Source of the DNA: an uncultured Nitrososphaerales archaeon
Lineage (GTDB): Archaea; Thermoproteota; Nitrososphaeria; Nitrososphaerales; Nitrososphaeraceae
Assembly: GCA_963709405.1 (NCBI GenBank)
Contig: CAVPXM010000053.1
Span: 96,001-160,000, forward strand
Length of the DNA stretch: 64,000 nt
Reading direction: 5' to 3'
Below the pieces are notes generated by a model. It did not search any database, was not told the origin of the DNA, and saw nothing but the letters and a program-made list of their open reading frames with translations. Positions 2,320 to 17,187 of the stretch are shown piece after piece (position 1 is the first letter of the stretch; every line of letters starts with the position of its first letter). Position numbers and translations under genes: made by a program.

Positions 2320-2798
2320 ACCATGCAAAATATACTCGAATTATCTACATAATAGATAATGTTCAGTTATGATTTATCAAAGTAATAATCGAGATATGTT
2401 ACTTAAGAGTAAGTTTCGAACGGTTTGGGTATGAATACGATTGCATATTAGCATAAATTTCTAACTTAACTCATATGTTGAATTGAATCACTGAACGACG
2501 ATTAGTTGATAGTTGATCAAGTCAAAATCTTTGAATTGTTATCTGCATCTAATGTTAGACAAGAGCTTTGAGATTGTGCTATAGGCGATGAAAAAGGATT
2601 ACGTGTTTAAATTAAGCCAGTAATATACTTCCGATCTCTACTCAAAGGATAAACCTGAATTGCTGTGTGCTAACTTCATAATCAGAGGTACCAAAATTTT
2701 GTAATTCATTCATTCAAAATATTATGGTATTTTTGGACAATCTACCATTGGATCAAAATACAATTGAGTCGATATATTGTATCTTCGGTAAATCAAAC

Positions 2799-2972
2799 TC
2801 AAAGTTCATCAATTGGATATTTGGATAAACATGCGGCACATTCGTAGATCTCCTTCCCAACCGGCCCCGATACGTTGAATTTGACAACGGTAGTACATTT
2901 AGGACATCTCCCCTGAACACTACGACTCTTTGTCTGCGGCCTTAAAAGTTTCCGTCTTCTTCTTCCTCCCAT
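2799..2972 (-). CDS. Basic N-terminus Zn-ribbon microprotein (57 aa), Elf1-like
   Basis: MGGRRRRKLLRPQTKSRSVQGRCPKC...YECAACLSKYPIDEL*, with two CxxC pairs. Confidence 0.75.
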   Translation of the reverse strand: MGGRRRRKLLRPQTKSRSVQGRCPKCTTVVKFNVSGPVGKEIYECAACLSKYPIDEL

Positions 2973-3358
2973 TATTTATATCGTAAATGTTGACACGCAT
3001 TGGACATTTTTACCTATCTAAGTACGTTTAGGCTCCTTTCTTGATGTTATAGATTGTCTCATTAATGACTGTCGGTTTTAACTTGATGAGCTGAATTTGA
3101 TTGCCACTATTAGGTTAAATGTATCCACTTATTGGTCCCGATACATCATATCCGTGGTTCATATCTATACTACAGAGTCACTGATATTATTAATATCTGT
3201 TCAAGATATCTCATAGACCTGGTTCATGATTATCTCCGCAAGTTGAGAGCGGACAAGACAATGCCTCATATTCACTACAAAAGCGATCCTCGATTAATAT
3301 TCAATATTAGTACGATTTAGAATTAATTATATTTTAGGTCATTATACCGGCAGCAAAA

Positions 3359-7681: not shown

Positions 7682-8122
7682 ATGAAAGAGGGGGATTATG
7701 AAGATGAGGATGATAATGTTGAGGATACGGATTTACCTAACGTATCTTTATCTCGTCAGCATGTGCTCTCTGTATTAGATAGTTTCATAGAGCAAATCTT
7801 GCATATAAGAAGAACTTTGCTCGGTGTATCTATTTCTTCTTTAATATTAGCTCCACTTGCAATAGGTCTCTCGGTATTCTTATTACGACATCCTTCTTTT
7901 TTTGTAATTTTAGAGATAGAGAACGAATTTGGTCTAATACTCAGCATATTGCTCGGATCAGTCATTGTTATTTCGTCTTTATGGCTGATCGCAGGCATTA
8001 GACAGTATCGGTCGGTAGGTTCTTGGAACAAGAAATACGCAGCATATCAACAGGATAAGCAAGAACTCGACAAGAAGATTGCCTCGCAGTTTATTTTAGA
8101 CAAGAATGATAACAAGTCGTAA
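7682..8122 (+). CDS. Hypothetical membrane protein (2 TM)
   Basis: Two hydrophobic segments, an acidic N-terminus and an upstream GGAGG. Confidence 0.75.
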   Translation: MKEGDYEDEDDNVEDTDLPNVSLSRQHVLSVLDSFIEQILHIRRTLLGVSISSLILAPLAIGLSVFLLRHPSFFVILEIENEFGLILSILLGSVIVISSLWLIAGIRQYRSVGSWNKKYAAYQQDKQELDKKIASQFILDKNDNKS

Positions 8123-8262
8123 TTTCGAGGTGAATATTGTATAGCTCTTACTCACCAATTCAAAAAGCTGTCGAAATTATATTGAAAACAATTAGGATGA
8201 GTTTTCTGTTTGTTTCTTATTTTTTCTCGTTGATGGAAATACTTGTCTTTGGTTCTTTATCA

Positions 8263-8559
8263 CTAGTCCTTTCTTCTAGGGAACATTTTTTCATATGGTT
8301 CCAATATCGTTCTAGAAAATTCAATTCCCTTCTCAGTGGGCTTATAAATAGTAATTAGTCGTTTATTGGACCTGATTTCCCTCTTAATAATCAATCCATT
8401 TAGCATCAGGTCATCAAGAATGAATTTATGCTTTGTAAGGTTTAATCCACAAAAACTAATCAGTGCAGTCTGGTTCATTTCACCATATTCCACAAGTTTT
8501 AGTATCAAGTCTTTGACAATGTATATCCTGTCTCTATATGACGATTGGGAACCAGCCAT
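8263..8559 (-). CDS. Winged helix-turn-helix protein (HTH_45-like)
   Basis: YRDRIYIVKDLI..MNQTALISFCGLN..YKPTEKG. Confidence 0.8.
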   Translation of the reverse strand: MAGSQSSYRDRIYIVKDLILKLVEYGEMNQTALISFCGLNLTKHKFILDDLMLNGLIIKREIRSNKRLITIYKPTEKGIEFSRTILEPYEKMFPRRKD

Positions 8560-8877: not shown

Positions 8878-9750
8878 TCAGCCTAGACATTCACAAAAAT
8901 CGACAATTTCATTAACTGTGCGTGTTGGGCTTGGCGAAAAGATAGTGATAGGGTCTCGAAACCATCTATTTGCTGCGAGATAAAAGCTATGTAACAGTAC
9001 CGTTATCGATTTCTCTGGTTCTGCTACCTATAGCTTCAGGTGTTTTTATATGAAATGATGAGAAATGACATTTTTGGTGTATTCCGATTTTTAATTGCTT
9101 TTTGTCAAGTCTAAAAAAGAATAACTCCTACGTTTTCTCATCAAATTTATAATATCAGGATACTTGCCCAAGTGTTGACGAAAGTCTTTCATTAAATCAG
9201 CTAATTCTTTTGGATCTGTGGGTATATCCAGTTTTTTGTTAACTATGGCTTAGTTTGTTCTCTTCCAGCAACTCTTCTTTCTCTATCTCCAAATCGACTA
9301 CCTTTTGTACTATTTCGTTCAATATTTCCTTTTTTTGTGAAACATATTCAGGTAAACCGTCGATAGTGACGTCCAGATTATTGGAAATATCAGATACATT
9401 ACTTATAAGATTAATAAATTCGTGGACTTTCAGACTACGCTTGAAACAATGGACCTCAATTTTTTCGATAAATGATTCTATTTGTTCTTCATTTAAGCTG
9501 TTATCTTCCGATATCTTTCAAAGCCTGATTGAAGAGGCTAGAAAATTTAGATCTAAACCTTTATTTTTAATTATGAAAGCAACTTGTCTTAATAAATCAA
9601 AATCCTGATCGTTCTGTTTGCATTCTTTAATTATCGAACTCACCGTCCCTGCCCCTATCTCTACTTCCCTAGCGATTTGATCTCTGGAATGACCCTTAAG
9701 CCAACGTCTAATGACTTCCTTTCTTATCGAAAGAGGTGTTTGGCACCCAT
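8878..9750 (-). pseudogene. Degraded N-terminal HTH + coiled-coil protein
   Basis: Reconstructed MGAK/PLSIRKEVIRRWLKGHSRDQIAREVEIGAGTVSSIIKEC... with a frameshift near 9740, an in-frame TGA near 9518 and further stops. GGAG and TTATAAA lie upstream. The 3' limit is approximate. Confidence 0.75.
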
Positions 9751-9867
9751 ACTCCTATCCCCAGGTAATTTACAAAATTCCAGTTTATAATAGATTGAAA
9801 ATTTCTGTTGTAAATGAATGGATTTTGCACCCACCCATTTTACGAGTAAACGGTCATCTGAAGATAA

Positions 9868-9944
9868 TTTGACGAGCAAATGACGAAAATCCGACGCCTA
9901 CCTGACGGTAATTCGACAATATTTTGACGGTAAAATGACGATAC
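9868..9944. repeat. Array of seven 11-bp phased GAC(G) repeats
   Basis: GAC at 9871, 9882, 9893, 9904, 9915, 9926 and 9937, an exact 11-bp period. Confidence 0.85.
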
Positions 9945-10275
9945 TAAAAAAGCTTTGACCGTATAGATGGTTTCTACACAGCCTAATGATATATTAATTC
10001 TAATATACATACCTTAAATTATTCATGTTACATCAGGTTTAGTTGTGGTGATATCACTAAATTTACTACTCTAGTATTTTCATATAGATGCTAAAAGCAG
10101 AGCCTACAAAATTAGGGCTTATTTTATCAACACAATATTCCGATGTCTCATAACAAGGTAATGCAATTCATCTAACGAGCCGATTTGAGATAGAGAAAAT
10201 TGTAAGAGACTAGTTCTTACGCTTCACACGATATAAACAGTAGTGACGCTCGAGATAAATATTGACTCAAATGAT

Positions 10276-10819
10276 TTAAGATGACTTATTAGATAATGCT
10301 GACTTTAGCCAATGAATACCAGACGTTGTAATTGTATAAATGATGGTGTCGATTCCATCTTTTGCGCTATTGCGAAGTCACATATCCTGACTTTACCAAC
10401 TCAGATAGCCGTGAGCTTACAGATTTCGGGTTAAGTGCGGTGGCGAGTTGAATCTGAGATAAACTCATTCCATCGATTTCAGTTTTCCCTAGTTCTTTTA
10501 CAATTTTTGACGCCACCAATTGTAGTGCGACCATTTGTTTATCAGAAATCTTTTTTATCCCTATTTCTTTTGGATCAAAGATTATTCTTGGTCCCTCAGC
10601 TGTAACCTTGATAAAAGGGGCAAAGGACTCTACTAATTCTACAGCTGAATAGTTTAGAGAGATTCTTCTTGCAAGGTCTAATGTAGGAACCTGCTTTGAT
10701 ATAAATGCAATAACAGACTCCAAGATCGAACGTGCAGATCCATTAAACTGTACTTTTACGTCTCCAACTGCTATTGATACACTAACGTTTGTAGTGTCAA
10801 TGTCATGATCATTTGACAT
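10276..10819 (-). CDS. Conserved protein with C-terminal winged HTH (apparent +1 frameshift near 10378)
   Basis: The ORF ends SRLSELVKSGYV. The wing continuation LRNSAKDGIDTIIYTITTSGIHWLK is in another frame and stops at 10276. Confidence 0.7.
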
Positions 10820-11634
10820 CTCTATTACTCCAAAAAGTATTAGATGATAGAAAGAGGGGATTCAAATTCGCCAAATTTAGGTGTTCCAACTGACATATGC
10901 TATTTCTTAATGACACATGGCTAACTAAATGAAGTATAAATCCACGATTAAGTTTCATATGATGTACGAAACTAATTGCCGTAAGTGTATCGATATCAAC
11001 GCAAAACACATTATCCATATGGCTTTATGGTTTATATAATTAGATAACGTGTTTATAAAGATAATTTTGATTATTCAAGCATCAGTGAGGATCAAATCTG
11101 AGCTCGTTCGTAAGAAGTAATTTAGAAGAGGTAACGTAATAAAGTATTCTGGTATTCTGGTATTTAAGATCACTCCGGATATGTTGAATATCGGGCCAGA
11201 TTCTGGAAAAGAGCCAGTCCATCTCTCGAATTTGACGTTTAATGTTCATTAAAGGACATCCTCTAGACGATGCTGAACTCCGACTCGCTCGGATACTTCA
11301 CTCCGTTGGGTTACATTATCGTTAGATAAATTTTTGGAACAGAACATGCTTAGGTTAACGTCATTTCTCGCTATACGCCGCGGGATAATGGGTATTTCAG
11401 GTGCGAGTTTTTTTATTCAACACCATCCATTTTACCCACCCCCATAGTTTCATTTATCATTTGTTGATGACTGAGGGTCTTTATTATCTTCTATAAATTG
11501 CGTTCTTTTTGCAAGAATACTTAACAATTCTTAATCTTTTGAATCAACAATCATGATAAATTGATAAGAAATTATTACTATAAAAATAGTCAAGGTAATT
11601 ATTATATAGTATATTTGCATACTTTGAACTTAGG

Positions 11635-11865
11635 ATGAAGTCTAGCATTGAGGACTTGGAAATAGCGTCTGGTTTGAAGAAAATGTTAATAGATGCTGGA
11701 TTCACTGCTGACTCTATCCTTCATTACGACATAAACGAAATATCTACTATTTTGGGGATAGAGATTTATGTCGCCAAAATTATCTTTGATGCCGCAAAGA
11801 AATTTGATCAAGCAAGACCCAGAGGCAGCTTTGTTAAGGATTCCGTTGGCGCTGCATTGGAGTAG
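11635..11865 (+). CDS. Small helix-hairpin-helix-like protein
   Basis: IEDLEIASGLKKMLIDAGF..EISTILGIEIYVAKII resembles the RadA N-terminal HhH domain. Confidence 0.6.
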   Translation: MKSSIEDLEIASGLKKMLIDAGFTADSILHYDINEISTILGIEIYVAKIIFDAAKKFDQARPRGSFVKDSVGAALE

Positions 11866-12350
11866 TACAAAGATAAATATCGGGATCAGATTACGGTCAT
11901 TCCCATTGAGATGTTAATTCTTATAATTTCCCTTAGTCACTATTCGGAAGCAATAGTTTAGAAATGATCATTTCCAGTACAGTAATATCCCTTTCTTATT
12001 AGTTGCTTTTCACAAAATATTCAAACCAGTCTGGTTATTATCGTCTACAACGTCGCAAATATGCCACACAATACACATATCAATGCCTAATCTAGAAGCT
12101 AAATGTAGTCTCGAATCAATCTGTAAGGCATGGAGCAACTTTGTGTTTTTGACAGGTAAAAGGTTCAGTTTGAGGTCGGAGCATGTCTATAATGTTAAAT
12201 GCACATCATTCCATGATTGCGATTACTTGCTTTGGTCTTAAGATTTCCACACCCCGGTACGCATGTTATTATGTACAATTTAGAAGTAAATTAAAGGTCG
12301 ATCAAGAGGTATCAAAAGAGATAAGTATCAAAGAGTATTTTGTAGACTTA

Positions 12351-13034
12351 TTGGATAGCAAGGGGTATTACGCAATTTTCGGAGTATCTGAACATGCTAA
12401 TTATCAAGAGATAAAAAAAGCATACAGACACCTTGCTAGGAAATATCACCCAGATAGGAATACTTCTGGTATATCTGATGAAATGATCAAGATGATAAAC
12501 GCTGCGTTTGAGATTCTCTCAGATAAGGATAAACGGCACACATATGACAATGACGAGTATCACGATGTGGTTTCTGGATCGGCCAATCAAGGATCAGATC
12601 ATGATGTACACGACGAGAAAGTAAACAGTGCAGGTTATCACAATAGTAAAACCTACAATACCACTGGTTTTAATGCTCAGAATTTTGTAGGTAGTAGTGG
12701 CTTTGCGGATTACAACGATTCGAACGAAAGGAGTAACTATACGCAATTTGCAGAGTTCGGCCCGGACTCGACTACGATTTCAGGCCTGCTTGATATCCCG
12801 AAGGGTCGATTCCATCTAGTTGTTGAACCGTCTCTTTGTATGGCCTTTGGGAGTTGCGAAACTCTAGCACCTAAAGTATTTGTAGTAGAAAAAAACAAGA
12901 GGATAAATCCAAAGGCTATAGTTGCGTCAGAAGTTGATGGAACTTATGATGAAATACTTTCTGCCGCACAAACGTGCCCCACAAAGGCAATCAAAATTAT
13001 AGACAGATACACAGGGGAACAAATTTATCCATAG
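12351..13034 (+). CDS. DnaJ-ferredoxin (DnaJ-Fer) fusion protein
   Basis: J-domain YYAIFGV..IKKAYR..YHPD; C-terminal ferredoxin CMAFGSC..AAQTCPTKAI. TTG 12351 is preferred over the track start at 12183. Confidence 0.9.
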   Translation: MDSKGYYAIFGVSEHANYQEIKKAYRHLARKYHPDRNTSGISDEMIKMINAAFEILSDKDKRHTYDNDEYHDVVSGSANQGSDHDVHDEKVNSAGYHNSKTYNTTGFNAQNFVGSSGFADYNDSNERSNYTQFAEFGPDSTTISGLLDIPKGRFHLVVEPSLCMAFGSCETLAPKVFVVEKNKRINPKAIVASEVDGTYDEILSAAQTCPTKAIKIIDRYTGEQIYP

Positions 13035-13883
13035 TTGACGACAATCTACTCTCACGATTTACCTCATTAATACCTGGCAAAACATCTTGCTCATGATTAG
13101 TTGAAAATTCAACTTTTGAAAATACACGTTCCAGTTAAATCTTTTGAATAGACCAGAGGATTTTTGGTCTCGGTTCTCTACACTGAAACACCAATGAGAA
13201 AGAAACTGTAAAACATCATAAAAAAGGTTCTCTGATTGAAGATCGTAATATATTCCCAATTGTAAACAATGAGTACAATTAATATGCAAGAGTGGATACG
13301 TCGACAATAGGGAATTAATGAACTGCTGTGATGAAAATCTTGGTCAAAGGTAGTTGCAACAGCTTATTGCACGAATATGTGATTATCAAAACATGGAGTT
13401 GTTTACATTAGTAGAGGACCAACTCAAGATAATTGAATCTGTAATTAATCTCGTGTTTAAAACAAGTCCACAATAACACCTTCGGTCTATAAGTTCATTG
13501 GTTTGCAATCTTGAAAATCATTTGACTAGGAGTGATAGACGAAAATGAGTATTATAAACGAGACAGGATATAATATTAGAAGAGTAATTTAGTTGCCTGA
13601 AAACATATTTGCATAAAGAAAATAACAATACATATGAGCATAATACATTGATTCCACGCTTCATGGCAAGATGCACTAGTTGACTTGAATTCATCGAATC
13701 AGTAGAGCGTTGCCTAGTAATAATTTTTAAAGGAACAAGAATTTTTGATATAACTCGGGTATCGAAACTACAGCTAAATTGTACTATTCTCCATTTACTA
13801 GTATTGATTGGCCAACATTTTTCCTACAAAAGGGTTTGTAGAAACAAGGAATCATATTGTGATGTACAAATTACTAAGTGCGC

Positions 13884-15686
13884 TCAAGCCATCTTTTTTA
13901 ACGACTGAATTCTTTCTGAAACCAAATCGAACCCCTGTTGCCAGAATCCACCTGAAGTGATATCAATATCGGCTTCCTTTAACAAATCCTCGGGTTTCCG
14001 TGAACCTCCAGCAGATAGTATCGTAAAATATTTTTGGATAAAGTCTTTACCTTCTTTCATATACTGGCTGTAGAGAGACAACGCTAATAGATTACCAAAT
14101 GAATAGGCGTAGCAATAAAATGGAGTATGATAAAAATGTGGTATGAACAACCACTCCCATCTGAAATCTGCAGAAATATTTACTGAATGGCCGAACTGTT
14201 GCGCTAAATTGTTTAGATAGATTTCAGAAATACCGTCAGCAGGCATATTATCCTCTGCGATAGCTTTGTGTGCATCAATTTCAAAAATGGTGAAATAAGC
14301 CTGTCTCATTATTGTAGCATAGAAATCATCAATCTGCTGAGCAAGGAATGATTTACGTTCTTCCCCCTTCAGTCCAATGGATAGACCATCAATCAAGAGC
14401 ATCTCGGCGAACACTGATGCAGTTTCTGCTAATGGAAGAGGAGCATGAGCCACAAAATAAGGGTTAGATGAGGCGGAGATACTGTGAATAGCATGACCCA
14501 ATTCATGAGACATCGTAGATACATCCCTACGCTTACCATCGAAATTGAGTAACACATATGGAGTTATTTTCGGTGAGATCGTTGAACAAAAAGCTCCGCT
14601 CTGTTTATTTTTCCTAATCCCATAATCGATATGCTTTTCGGAAAAGAGTCTTTCCGCAGACTCCCTGAACTCTGGTGTAAATTCTTCGAATGTCTTTAGT
14701 ACGAGAGATTTAGCTCGACTAAACGTAATTCTTTTTTGATTGGATTCATTTAGCGATATTGGGGCATAAATATGGTATCTATGGAGCTTCCTTACACCGA
14801 GGATCCTAGCTTTTTCTTTGAAATAGATATGAAAGATCGAGGCATTACGTTTACACGCATCTAGTAAAGTCTGTACGGTCGAATCTTCTATATTATTGAA
14901 AGTATTTCGGACTGATATAGCTGATTTGAATCCTCTCATATTCACGTATTCATCGCGCCATTGGATCACTCTGTTAAGATAAATTTCTGACAATGTCCCA
15001 CTATTTTTTTTATACACCTGTAATAGTGACCTATATGCAGCTTCCCTTTCTTCAGGTTTCGAACTTCTTATCATTGAAAGTAATTTTTCTTTATTGAAAA
15101 ATATCTTTTTGGTAATTCTTTTGTTCTTTTTGATAGTAACTATAAATTCTAATCCGTTCGAAAATCTATCATAGATCTTTACTAGTGCATTGGTTCCAGT
15201 AACCTCCAAAGTATTAATAATTTTCTCTTCTGGTTCAGTCAATGTGTACTTTGAGAGCAACCTCTTATGCTTAAGGAATTCTTTGTACACATACGGTACT
15301 GAATCAATTAGTCTGAGGGCATCATCTTCTTTCAATAACTTTTTAAACCAAATGTCAAAAAATAGAAGCCTATTAGAAAGAGTGGATGAAAGAGCATCCA
15401 TTTTTGTCACAAGAGCAGCGGATTCATTTGAAGAAGTATCTGATGCATATAACAAGTGGTAATATCCCCCGGCAGTACTCACCCTTTCAGATATATTTTC
15501 AATTGAAAGTAGTAGATTTCTAAAGTCCGCTGCAGAGATAGTGTCGGCGAGGATTTGCTGTTTAGCTTCGACATCTTTTACACTCCTTTCAACGGATCGC
15601 AAAAATTTTTCGAATCCTTGCTTGTACGAGTTCTCAAGATCTCCGAGGTCCCAAGAAGCAACCTTAGGTTTAACTCTAGCAGGCAT
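13884..15686 (-). CDS. pepF: Oligoendopeptidase F (M3B)
   Basis: WDL N-terminus, KQSGAFC, HELGHAIH, AETASVFAE and PHFY..FYCYAYSFG. Confidence 0.93.
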   Translation of the reverse strand: MPARVKPKVASWDLGDLENSYKQGFEKFLRSVERSVKDVEAKQQILADTISAADFRNLLLSIENISERVSTAGGYYHLLYASDTSSNESAALVTKMDALSSTLSNRLLFFDIWFKKLLKEDDALRLIDSVPYVYKEFLKHKRLLSKYTLTEPEEKIINTLEVTGTNALVKIYDRFSNGLEFIVTIKKNKRITKKIFFNKEKLLSMIRSSKPEEREAAYRSLLQVYKKNSGTLSEIYLNRVIQWRDEYVNMRGFKSAISVRNTFNNIEDSTVQTLLDACKRNASIFHIYFKEKARILGVRKLHRYHIYAPISLNESNQKRITFSRAKSLVLKTFEEFTPEFRESAERLFSEKHIDYGIRKNKQSGAFCSTISPKITPYVLLNFDGKRRDVSTMSHELGHAIHSISASSNPYFVAHAPLPLAETASVFAEMLLIDGLSIGLKGEERKSFLAQQIDDFYATIMRQAYFTIFEIDAHKAIAEDNMPADGISEIYLNNLAQQFGHSVNISADFRWEWLFIPHFYHTPFYCYAYSFGNLLALSLYSQYMKEGKDFIQKYFTILSAGGSRKPEDLLKEADIDITSGGFWQQGFDLVSERIQSLKKMA

Positions 15687-15924
15687 ATATTAAAAGACTG
15701 GTATTTTGCAGCTATCTGGTCTCATATATACGATTCAGATATTTAGAGACTTTTGATGTATTGCAAAATTGTAGGTCAGCCACATTCATGATCGTCTAAG
15801 AGAAGCATTTGACCACTAACTATTAATTTAGACTTCAGTGTAGATGATGGAGCATTTTATTTATGGTTCTCATCATTCTACCCAAGAATTTTGCTTTGAT
15901 GATATTAAAAATAAGTGGCGTGCC

Positions 15925-16718
15925 TCATTGGATTCGTTCGGACCGATTGAATAAAGGAGGAAAGGCGCAAGTTCTAGGAGCATAAGCATTTGATAAGCAA
16001 TAGTACCATATTTCTCTGACAACTTTTGTAATTTTGGTATAGTCATCACTATCTTCAGAATTTTTTACAATTGCTTCTTGATCGGCTATTTGCTTCTTTA
16101 TATCTTGAAGTCTTGCCTTTTCTTTGTCACATTCTGATCTAATATTCTTGTATTCTAGTCTAATGGGCTCTATTCTTTTGGACATGTCAATTATCTGATC
16201 ATTTAAATTCTGAAACTGGTCGGCTGACACTCTTAATTTAAACTCCAATGCATTATTCTCGTGTTGTAGATGTTCATACTCACATTGAACTAATGGCAAA
16301 TGATTGTTGGCGATGATAAGAAGGTTAATGACTTGTTGTACACCCATATTCGCAGACTTCGATGCTCTGTATAGATTCTAGAAAGTGACCTATGTTGTCT
16401 CCAAGCTCTTGATGTATGATTAACCGCATTATGTTGTATCAATCTTAGGTATTCCGTATGGTATTGGATTACCTGCATCTGTGCAATGTTTAATGTGATG
16501 GCAACGTCTATTGGTTGTTTACCCTGCCGAAATAGCTCATAAGCTTGCACAGATAAGGATTTATGTTCTTGCCTCTCTTTTTCTCTAATTGCCCTGTTTA
16601 TAATATCTCCAATATCTCGAGGAGATTTTCTTGCTATTTTGGCTACTTCACGAATTGTCTTATTCTGGTTGAAGTACAAATCTAAGACAAGTTCTTCCTT
16701 TTCCTTTCGAGTTAACAC
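15925..16718 (-). pseudogene. Frameshifted HTH + coiled-coil protein
   Basis: MLTRKEKEELVLDLY..KTIREVAKIARKSPRDIGDII HTH, a second HTH-like segment (AYELFRQGKQPIDVAITL), at least two frameshifts near 16380-16420, then a coiled-coil ORF at 15925-16347. Confidence 0.75.
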
Positions 16719-16793
16719 TCCTTTTGGTTTTTGTGTCTATATCTTTCATATCTAGAGAATTTATAAGAATCTGGTTTAAAATAAAAAAGGCCA

Positions 16794-16866
16794 TTGTTAT
16801 CACTTTGTATCTTTTGTTACCATTGGATTATCACCAATTACCACCTTGTTACAGTCTATTTCCAGC
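16794..16866. repeat. Helically phased TTAYCA-like repeat array
   Basis: Units at 16797, 16807, 16817, 16828, 16838, 16849 and 16859 (ttatca, gtatct, ttacca, ttatca, ttacca, ttacag, tttcca). Confidence 0.7.
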
Positions 16867-17187
16867 AGCGTCATCTGACACCGTCTGTTATCAAGTCAAT
16901 TTAGGTGAACTCAAAATATAGATAGGTGAGTAGCCATAAGGATAGATGGAGAATAAGGGAAATTCATTAAGTAGGTTAACAAGATATACTATTCCGGTTA
17001 GTGCTCTCAATAACCAAAGCATTAGAAGAGTAATAATAAAGAGAATTTGTTGTGTGTTTATAGATAAATAACATAAGTAGACACACAGTATGTCTACTAC
17101 TATCTTCACCATCTTTACTTTTGTTCATTCTGACAGGAGGAAATTCATCTGACCCTCTTCGGATTTGTAGCAATACCCTATCTAGCA

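Follow-up and report, generated by a model that had tools for sequence, protein, structure and literature searches.

Two gene families of Nitrososphaeraceae with helically phased repeat arrays at their own promoters: candidate self-contained cis/trans cassettes

Results

Two decayed genes behind phased repeats

We analyzed a 64-kb stretch of DNA (hereafter the window; G000:C53:96001-160000) from the genome of an uncultured Nitrososphaerales archaeon, G000, which comprises 4.83 Mb on 100 contigs. Two broken genes on its minus strand, gene 1 and gene 2, each lie behind a row of short direct repeats spaced by about one turn of the DNA helix and behind an AT-rich, TATA-like box (Table 1). They represent two multi-copy families, fam1 and fam2, whose intact members are predicted to combine an N-terminal helix-turn-helix (HTH) with a long coiled coil. 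An earlier note on this DNA, made from the letters alone, had described both genes as decayed and as sharing the order of about seven phased motifs, a TATA box and an HTH/coiled-coil open reading frame (ORF). The coordinates, frames and lesions reported below bear this out, the motif counts (8+1 at gene 1, 7+1 at gene 2) being close to the stated seven; as for the TATA box, AT-rich boxes are indeed present and their identity as TATA elements is a consensus reading. We argue below that each such locus may be a self-contained cassette whose protein acts on the repeats in front of its own gene.

Table 1. Coordinates of the features at the gene 1 and gene 2 loci (positions within the window).
Feature	Position	Strand	Remarks
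fam1 repeat array	9859..9960	minus	8 CGTCA-like cores from 9940 to 9859 in strict 11-bp register, plus 1 core further upstream
TATA-like box TTATAAA	9790-9784	minus	~70 bp past the array and ~35 bp before the ATG; consensus reading
Gene 1, fam1 pseudogene	9094..9750	minus	ATG at 9750-9748; intact paralogs elsewhere in G000
Duplicated fam1 cassette	9002..9978	minus	Array, promoter, gene and ~100 bp of 3' flank; 4 genomic copies
Terminator-like hairpin followed by a T run	9957..9983	minus	Just upstream of the fam1 array; consensus match only
fam2 repeat array	16794..16892	minus	7 contiguous GRTAAYA-like units from 16862 to 16794, steps of 9-12 bp, plus GATAACAG at 16892
Two AT-rich TATA-like boxes, TTTTTTATTTTAAA and TTATAAAT	16788-16775, 16766-16759	minus	Directly downstream of the last fam2 unit
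Gene 2, fam2 pseudogene	15876..16749	minus	ATG at 16749-16747; at least 3 frames

The CGTCA-like cores of gene 1 start at 9940, 9929, 9918, 9907, 9896, 9885, 9874 and 9863, that is, in exact 11-bp steps, and the ninth core, GGTCA at 9960-9956, lies 20 bp upstream of this row. A pattern of five GTCR-N7 units found the array as its sole site in the window (three overlapping matches), with no match in 100 dinucleotide shuffles. Relative to three paralogous copies, gene 1 has lost 1 nt just past its start, shows a TGA in frame at 9520-9518 in place of the paralogs' AGA, and has suffered a 179-bp deletion at 9250. What is left are an HTH-like piece (9754-9521), a helical/coiled piece behind the stop codon (9517-9242) and, in a different frame, the C-terminal piece (9249-9094). 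Intact paralogs occur in the same genome at C80:5630-4788 (encoding protein P0001) and C64:1003-1893.

The array of gene 1 is kept in all three paralogous copies, and so across all four is the TTATAAA box, whose promoter function is suggested by its consensus. The four copies share 78-93% nucleotide identity over ~1.16 kb, the array included. Their homology stops just upstream of the array and ~100 bp beyond the stop codon, and thus the unit of duplication is the cassette itself. No common outer ends and no shared terminal inverted repeats emerged when the four copies were compared. In the C80 copy, the array is shorter by 11 bp, i.e., by one whole unit. The terminator-like hairpin is common only to the C55 copy among the cassette copies.

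The GRTAAYA-like units of gene 2 start at 16892, 16862, 16852, 16841, 16832, 16820, 16811 and 16801, giving steps of 30, 10, 11, 9, 12, 9 and 10 bp. The coding remnants occupy three frames (16718-16290, 16347-15925 and 16064-15876). The locus is syntenic in a sister species, with 88.5% identity up to an IMP dehydrogenase flank, and the ortholog there is likewise broken and full of stops. Compared with this ortholog, gene 2 has a 7-bp insertion near its start, before the HTH, and its array lacks 21 bp, corresponding to two units. The TATA-like boxes, putatively a promoter, are kept in the sister-species ortholog and in paralogs. Intact paralogs of gene 2 reside at C61:54524-53499 (P0002) and C20:81420-80257 (P0003) of G000. 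Because the lesions of gene 1 stand out against three paralogs and the ortholog of gene 2 is broken as well, the decay is real and no artefact of assembly. The fast turnover proposed in the earlier note holds in part only: a pseudogene that is syntenic and broken in the sister species too means that relics persist.

Two multi-copy families and their distribution

Using tblastn and iterated hidden Markov model (HMM) searches of G000, we defined the two families, which have no ORFs in common. We count 15 fam1 loci plus the window copy and 27 fam2 loci, ~43 in all, and further relics are present. Only ~11 of the 43 (6 fam1, 5 fam2) are full length by HMM coverage, the others being split or truncated. 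Alignment of the two profiles with hhalign gave a probability of 2.3% and covered the HTH alone, leaving no detectable homology beyond it. The dispersed family foreseen in the earlier note thus turns out to be two families, in both of which array, promoter and gene form a conserved module.

The observation also reaches wider than a single contig could tell. Of 81 Nitrososphaeraceae genomes sampled, fam2 was matched in 51 (14 of 18 genera) and fam1 in 54, so that each family is present in about 50. These tallies include two unpublished genomes, G035 and G076, without which they become 49/79 and 52/79; the locus analyses use neither of the two. Matches per genome range from 0 to 25, many with internal stops, and copies are found in the closed chromosomes G001, G032 and G043. 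In two genera, fam2 was matched in 0 of 7 genomes. A class-wide sample outside Nitrososphaeraceae, which speaks for the sampled genomes only, yielded fam2 in 0 of 147, including 0 of 80 from the largest sister family. Database homologs are all called hypothetical or bear chance coiled-coil names, their named sources are Nitrososphaeraceae, and many sit on contigs of 1-5 kb. With a limit of E 1e-10 the fam1 profile collected 754 cluster representatives, and with a limit of 1e-30 it collected 149; a word-limited search with fam2 gave 147 matches. The ESM Atlas returned only hypothetical-protein clusters from Nitrososphaerota. Some of these appear in the lists of both families, which is a lead, no more, towards a superfamily joining fam1 and fam2.

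The N-terminal 150-200 residues of fam1, comprising the HTH and helical domain, also open frames of 480-636 aa elsewhere (e.g., G017:C204, G014:C1:740250 and G044:C66), so that this module is reused in larger proteins. Some fam1 homologs (P0140, P0148, P0150-P0152, P0154) are named XRE-family HTH by one source, one of them with Pfam HTH_3 (PF01381); their N-termini still align with fam1, and the labels look like annotation noise, not a domain swap. At the fam1 locus L111 of a closed genome (G043:C1:1340140-1343628), contigs of four soil metatranscriptome runs cover the flanking genes and not the cassette at 1054-2340, and are uninformative on its expression. A neighboring ORF of 324 aa (2322-3296, plus strand) and the ends of this locus are covered by soil metatranscriptome contigs of several studies at 95% identity or more, which indicates that the organism or a close relative lives in those soils.

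Arrays are a hallmark of both families

Inspection of 330 bp of upstream DNA revealed phased repeats at almost all paralogs that retain their N-terminus. For comparison, we used 2652 upstream regions of other ORFs of at least 150 aa. A motif-blind count scored the longest run of 8-mers that match at 6 or more of 8 positions in 9-13-bp steps within 250 bp upstream. Runs of at least five units occurred at 16 of 32 family loci versus 62 of the 2652 controls, and runs of at least six at 11 of 32 versus 13 of 2652, all 13 controls being AT-rich low-complexity sequences or coding triplet repeats. This strict version replaced a run statistic with skipped units, which was too permissive (60/1200 controls at six or more units).

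Motif-specific counts separate the families from the controls more sharply. The fam2 position weight matrix (PWM; consensus ATGRTAACAGAT) was refined on 66 loci from G000 and 18 other genomes, and controls were scanned on either strand. At least four units were present at 55 of the 66 loci, a figure made optimistic by training the matrix on the loci that it counts, compared with 7 of 2652 controls, a figure unaffected by the training. Distances between fam2 units cluster at 10 (85 cases), 9 (26), 11 (23), 12 (11), 20 (39) and 21 bp (12), then near 30, 40 and 51, which are multiples of ~10.3 bp. The fam2 core reads ATGRTAACAG. In fam1, we counted GTC[AG] cores in a 10-12-bp or 21-23-bp register on the coding strand. 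Four or more were in register at 24 of 37 loci (23 loci from other genomes and 14 from G000) versus none of the 2652 controls, where the maximum was 3. The spacing was exactly 11 bp in 120 of 131 instances. The fam1 unit has the consensus nnnCGTCAnATn with a core of CGTCAnAT, in which C precedes GTC at a frequency of 0.64, and the A and T behind the core reach 0.71 and 0.82. Arrays thus accompany most loci of both families, and arrays upstream of unrelated genes are essentially absent.

Most of the G000 fam1 loci outside the 11-bp register fall into two subgroups: one has the reverse complement, TTTGACG, in conserved steps of 9/13/12/9/12 next to the TATA-like box, and the other has only three ATGACGA units. 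Two loci from closed genomes, L118 and L119, have another helix sequence (GSVSRI and GSVFRI), and L118 has a GTCCA-type repeat at 11 bp. Across genera, the array motif is kept upstream of relatives down to ~30% protein identity, where the surrounding intergenic DNA is unalignable.

Genome-wide array scans of G000 detected no clear array at an unrelated gene. Each of the orphan arrays that we checked (C57, C68, C30:174824 and C23/C95) adjoins a truncated or broken family start, which in C57 consists of ATGGGC followed by insertion sequence (IS) genes; a fifth, weaker one at C30:110096 lies beside a fam2 fragment. A scan for 6-mers with one mismatch was noisy at five copies (326 non-simple clusters, 15 of them near family loci), while at seven or more copies its non-coding, non-triplet matches were family arrays or their relics. 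Regular-expression chains for the two motifs lay near family ORFs in 10 of 17 and 5 of 13 cases, the others being relics or coding GC-rich repeats. An exact 5-mer chain scan was discarded; it is too strict for degenerate units and returned mainly microsatellites and coding triplet repeats, with 2 family arrays only.

A suggestive association between repeat unit and recognition helix

The earlier note had proposed a test for covariation between the array motif and recognition-helix residues. Among fam2 loci, those whose first recognition helix is SPN[TD]I carried at least four canonical units in 0 of 7 cases, and those with [SC]xRDI in 54 of 58. Within the RDI loci, the form of the unit varies with the residue preceding R. 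GGTAATA accounts for 0.42 of units at S-L-RDI loci versus 0.06 at S-P-RDI loci (label permutation p below 1e-4), and GGTAGCA for 0.39 of units at S-F-RDI loci versus 0.16 (label permutation p = 0.003). The L class comprises three sequence groups by eye. The covariation signal is thus positive, but it is confounded by phylogeny: since related sequences are not independent, the association is suggestive, not decisive.

These results bear on the possibility that the arrays are activating or silencing sites for a different host factor shared by all loci, and that they travel by co-duplication of gene and promoter while the encoded proteins act elsewhere. One common reader would be expected to leave the core motif nearly the same in most paralogs of each family, as is the case, and binding of the proteins to the arrays is something that we infer. 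Yet two families without homology beyond the HTH have two motifs with two periods (11.0 bp in fam1, ~10.3 bp in fam2), the unit sequence shifts with recognition-helix residues, and arrays stand at unrelated genes in only 0 (fam1) and 7 (fam2) of the 2652 controls. We regard a shared host factor as quite improbable.

Predicted protein architecture

Scans of Pfam, NCBIfam, PHROGs and PADLOC produced no family above threshold for either fam1 or fam2. In Pfam, sub-threshold matches were limited to HTH_28, HTH_23, HTH_SB, Sigma70_r4 and GerE plus coiled-coil noise; PHROGs contained nothing past E 1e-3 except one match to the HTH of one protein; and PADLOC defence models gave only coiled-coil-level matches (LmuB and PbeC, E 4.5e-4 to 8e-3), again for one protein. 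No DDE, rve or recombinase domain was found in P0001-P0003 by these domain scans.

AlphaFold2 models were built on alignments of natural homologs. The fam2 model (P0002; predicted local distance difference test, pLDDT, 70.8) has two three-helix HTH units, at residues 13-60 and 64-102, ahead of a helical domain (106-148), which is followed by a helix of 72 residues (153-224) and more helices. In the fam1 model (P0001; pLDDT 77.7), an HTH (7-47) is followed by helices (51-126), a 92-residue helix (130-221) and a small C-terminal bundle. The models thereby support a fold with an N-terminal HTH resembling LuxR and sigma region 4 (two units in fam2), a helical domain, a helix of 70-90 residues and a C-terminal helical domain. 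Sub-threshold Pfam matches and models of intact paralogs accordingly agree with the HTH/coiled-coil content read from the window, to which the databases add no family above threshold.

Foldseek matched neither whole model to the PDB at E up to 1e-3. The N-terminal 50-60 residues came closest to LuxR/GerE/NarL and sigma region 4 domains, namely 1je8 (template-modeling score 0.61 on the target), 8jzt, 4g8x and 1fse, all at E-values of 0.1 or more, and the other 220-330 residues were unmatched. Profile searches of PDB sequences reached HTH or coiled-coil level only, the best match being 8vd6 ('CAP REPEAT', E 7e-5 over 38 residues).

Prediction of P0001 in two copies gave an interface score (ipSAE) of 0.47, compared with 0.00 for the best of 3 controls. 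For calibration, among proteins of solved structure, 20 of 30 that were solved as pairs of one chain attained this ipSAE mark, as did 1 of 23 that were solved as single chains; with a custom alignment both counts are only rough. The dimer runs agree in at least 85% of contacts, with a partner pLDDT of at least 70. Because the predicted contacts are in register (192:192, 213:213) and follow heptad spacing along residues 130-220, the interface would be a parallel coiled coil, with the HTH heads outside it. The prediction supports, without showing, a parallel fam1 homodimer.

Genomic context and the mobile-element question

A transposase or integrase ORF lies within 5 kb of 18 of 42 family loci versus 1478 of 5000 (30%) random 1-kb sites scored at the same distance. 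This mild excess is seen in an IS-rich genome; G000 has 229 transposase- or integrase-like ORFs, as judged by matches to five representatives at E up to 1e-8. Transposases of the IS4/5 and IS630 types recur within 5 kb of the loci, as do rve integrases, a tyrosine-recombinase-like ORF, histidine kinases and various enzymes. Within the same distance we found no conserved partner gene and no replicase, ParA, ParB, KfrC, capsid or motor gene.

Repeats beside genes of this kind might be functionless, slippage-prone tandem repeats, or end sites of an unrecognized transposon, that merely hitch-hike with the genes. Changes by whole units do resemble slippage, the HTH resembles transposase-type HTHs below threshold (HTH_23, HTH_28, HTH_SB), and IS630-like genes occur near 5 loci. 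Neutral repeats, however, would not keep near-invariant cores amid free spacers across genera, as these arrays do: in fam1, GTC is fixed by the search anchor, the following A has a frequency of 0.91 and the flanks ~0.3-0.5, while G, A and A of the fam2 GRTAACA stand at 0.99-1.0. The proteins contain no DDE or recombinase domain, and the four near-identical fam1 copies lack the shared inverted repeats and outer ends of a transposon. We consider this origin of the arrays very improbable. An identification of the cassettes as insertion sequences or transposons was dropped on the same two findings, the missing transposase catalytic domain in P0001-P0003 and the missing common ends. Iteron-type replication origins, in which a winged-helix Rep protein recognizes 17-22-bp iterons adjoining an AT-rich unwinding element, were also rejected, as the units here have a 10-11-bp period and no Rep or winged-helix family was detected in fam1 or fam2 proteins.

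Alternatively, the cassettes might once have served plasmids, viruses or other integrated elements as centromere-like modules for partition or stability. Their original job would have been to segregate an extrachromosomal replicon, in the way of pSK1 Par, KfrA, ParR/parC or TubR/tubC, before they landed in the chromosome, where they are now decaying. Their architecture is like that of single-protein or accessory partition factors, most copies are pseudogenes, the number of matches varies from 0 to 25 per genome, many database homologs come from 1-5-kb contigs, and 3 loci have tyrosine-recombinase-like ORFs in their vicinity, others IS transposases. In contrast, IS proximity is only mildly raised in a genome rich in such elements, the neighborhoods have no conserved gene and none for a replicase, ParA or capsid, and homology among the four fam1 copies ends at the cassette edges. 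Moreover, the gene 2 locus is syntenic with housekeeping flanks in the sister species, copies are present in three closed chromosomes, and PHROGs matched nothing but the HTH of one protein. We hold this history to be unlikely. The earlier suggestion of relics of integrated elements finds no support in the IS proximity or in neighborhoods without a conserved gene, and an origin of the cassettes from, or residence within, a mobile element is not supported.

Discussion

We propose, with a probability of roughly 0.6, that every locus forms a self-contained cis/trans cassette, in which the encoded protein coats the phased operator of its own gene and works in the manner of the plasmid proteins KfrA and pSK1 Par. 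Four to ten short direct repeats, one helical turn apart, would constitute an operator on the upstream side of an archaeal TATA-type promoter, which would drive the gene for an HTH plus coiled-coil protein. The protein would dimerize via a parallel coiled coil, each HTH would recognize one repeat, and dimers would bind repeats on one face of the DNA. Cooperative polymerization along the array would then create a protein-coated DNA segment at the gene's own locus, and this coated array would control the gene's own promoter. The arrays are situated entirely on the upstream side of the TATA-like box, abutting it in fam2 and in the TTTGAC subgroup of fam1 and ~70 bp away in the fam1 type of the window. 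In archaea, a site upstream of TATA is more typical of activation, or of interference with the B recognition element (BRE), than of promoter occlusion. The arrangement would thus fit autoregulation by activation or, in fam2, by occlusion of the BRE. Each protein seems to have no clustered target beyond its own cassette, which suggests that the product could be the nucleoprotein complex, as for KfrA and pSK1 Par.

Several points weigh against this proposal. The linkage of gene and array, the phasing, the family-specific motifs, the distribution and the decay are shown by the data, and the fold and the homodimer are supported by models; by comparison, binding of the protein to its array, cooperativity, autoregulation with its sign, and any cellular role are inferred. 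A symmetric parallel dimer would more naturally read inverted than direct repeats. In the fam1 type of the window, the ~70 bp between array and TATA-like box mean that simple promoter occlusion does not apply. The 11-bp same-strand test is failed by 13 of the 37 fam1 loci, and the fam2 count is inflated by its training set as stated. The association between helix and motif comes from a few clades of related sequences, of which the SPN[TD]I class may be one. Finally, 27-30 of the 81 family genomes show no copy; together with the small share of full-length loci (~11 of 43), this makes whatever role the cassette has dispensable.

An HTH gene behind a row of evenly spaced repeats has so far been known mainly from plasmid maintenance proteins. 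KfrA of plasmid RA3 is described as an HTH with a long alpha-helical tail that autoregulates via five 9-bp direct repeats, oligomerizes and aids plasmid maintenance, within a family (broad-host-range plasmids RA3, RK2, R751) defined by architecture rather than by sequence (PMC7783346). Our families share the N-terminal HTH and long, self-associating helical tail by models only (fam1 dimer ipSAE 0.47), and they share the iterated direct repeats at the promoter of the gene itself at most loci, as counted above. Unlike KfrA, which is plasmid-borne with KfrC and ParA/ParB-type partners, fam1 and fam2 are archaeal and chromosomal. They have 4-10 units with a 10-11-bp period placed upstream of the TATA-like box, without overlapping the core promoter, and they come in dozens of copies per genome, mostly broken. 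The KfrA profile (Pfam KfrA_N) was unmatched by the window pieces and the intact paralogs at E up to 0.05-0.1, and profile searches of PDB sequences revealed no solved relative.

The stability factor Par of the staphylococcal plasmid pSK1 is a single-copy, single-protein system, sufficient for plasmid stability, in which an HTH and a coiled coil are encoded beside upstream repeats, with no NTPase partner. It resembles fam1 and fam2 in architecture, and it differs in being a bacterial plasmid gene present once, not a chromosomal gene in many copies. The earlier note had chosen pSK1 Par as its example; KfrA of RA3 is an analogue at least as close. In ParR/parC, TubR/tubC and omega-type systems, direct repeats with a period of ~7-12 bp adjoin the promoter of the binder's operon, and cooperative coating doubles as autoregulation. 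The binders there, however, belong to the ribbon-helix-helix or winged-helix type and act together with a motor (ParM, TubZ or ParA), whereas here an HTH is joined to a coiled coil and no motor gene is nearby. With LuxR/GerE/NarL proteins and sigma-70 region 4 the likeness is limited to the N-terminal HTH, fam1 and fam2 having neither receiver nor sigma domains. Membership in the KfrA family fails on sequence and context, and the likeness to both KfrA and pSK1 Par is one of working principle.

We see the novelty in two new archaeal families that would realize the known principle of an iterated operator with a coiled-coil binder on the chromosome, in many paralogs and in a state of decay. In line with the earlier note, whose author knew of no description, full-text searches of open-access articles yielded no account of the families or arrays. 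The relevant passages of two articles on archaeal dark matter and thaumarchaeal mobile elements (PMC4158269, PMC6563490) mention neither. Overall, the interpretation given in the earlier note is partly supported by our data.

The soil ammonia oxidizers of the Nitrososphaeraceae play a major part in nitrification, and a large share of their genome is dark matter. Out of two large sets of proteins so far called hypothetical comes a defined module that can be tested and in which each copy has a predicted DNA target, and the arrays offer ready-made cognate pairs of protein and site for studies of archaeal promoter control. If the proteins bind their own arrays, they would be the first archaeal counterpart of the KfrA/Par-type iterated-operator coiled-coil binders, and their chromosomal location and massive paralogy would be unusual. 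That arrays are nearly absent except at their own genes raises the question as to what purpose is served by a DNA-binding protein whose only clustered target is itself. We know of no chromosome-partition machinery described for Nitrososphaeraceae. It is conceivable, although distinctly unlikely, that dozens of self-marking loci form a lineage-specific network in which coiled-coil filaments on their own arrays serve as chromosomal landmarks (centromere-like anchors for segregation or domain organization) or as heritable bistable switches, a solution that the two families would have reached independently.

Other features

The region around gene 1 is rich in small DNA-binding genes. Small winged-helix proteins flank it at 8263-8559 and 10367-10819, both on the minus strand (HTH_45, E 3.5e-5; HTH_24, E 6e-4), and contig C50 carries a copy of the stretch 7805-8534 at 67-72% identity. 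In the plus-strand ORF at 12183-13034, a DnaJ J-domain (E 4.5e-21) is joined to a ferredoxin domain with a single 4Fe-4S cluster at the C-terminus (Fer4_13, E 7.9e-7), an unusual pairing. Elsewhere in G000, at C6:82659-82830, CTATCTGAC is repeated four times head to tail and, ~60 bp on, three times more. These repeats lie ~200 bp upstream of an ORF of 287 aa (C6:83007-83870) that belongs to neither family and may be another repeat-fronted gene.

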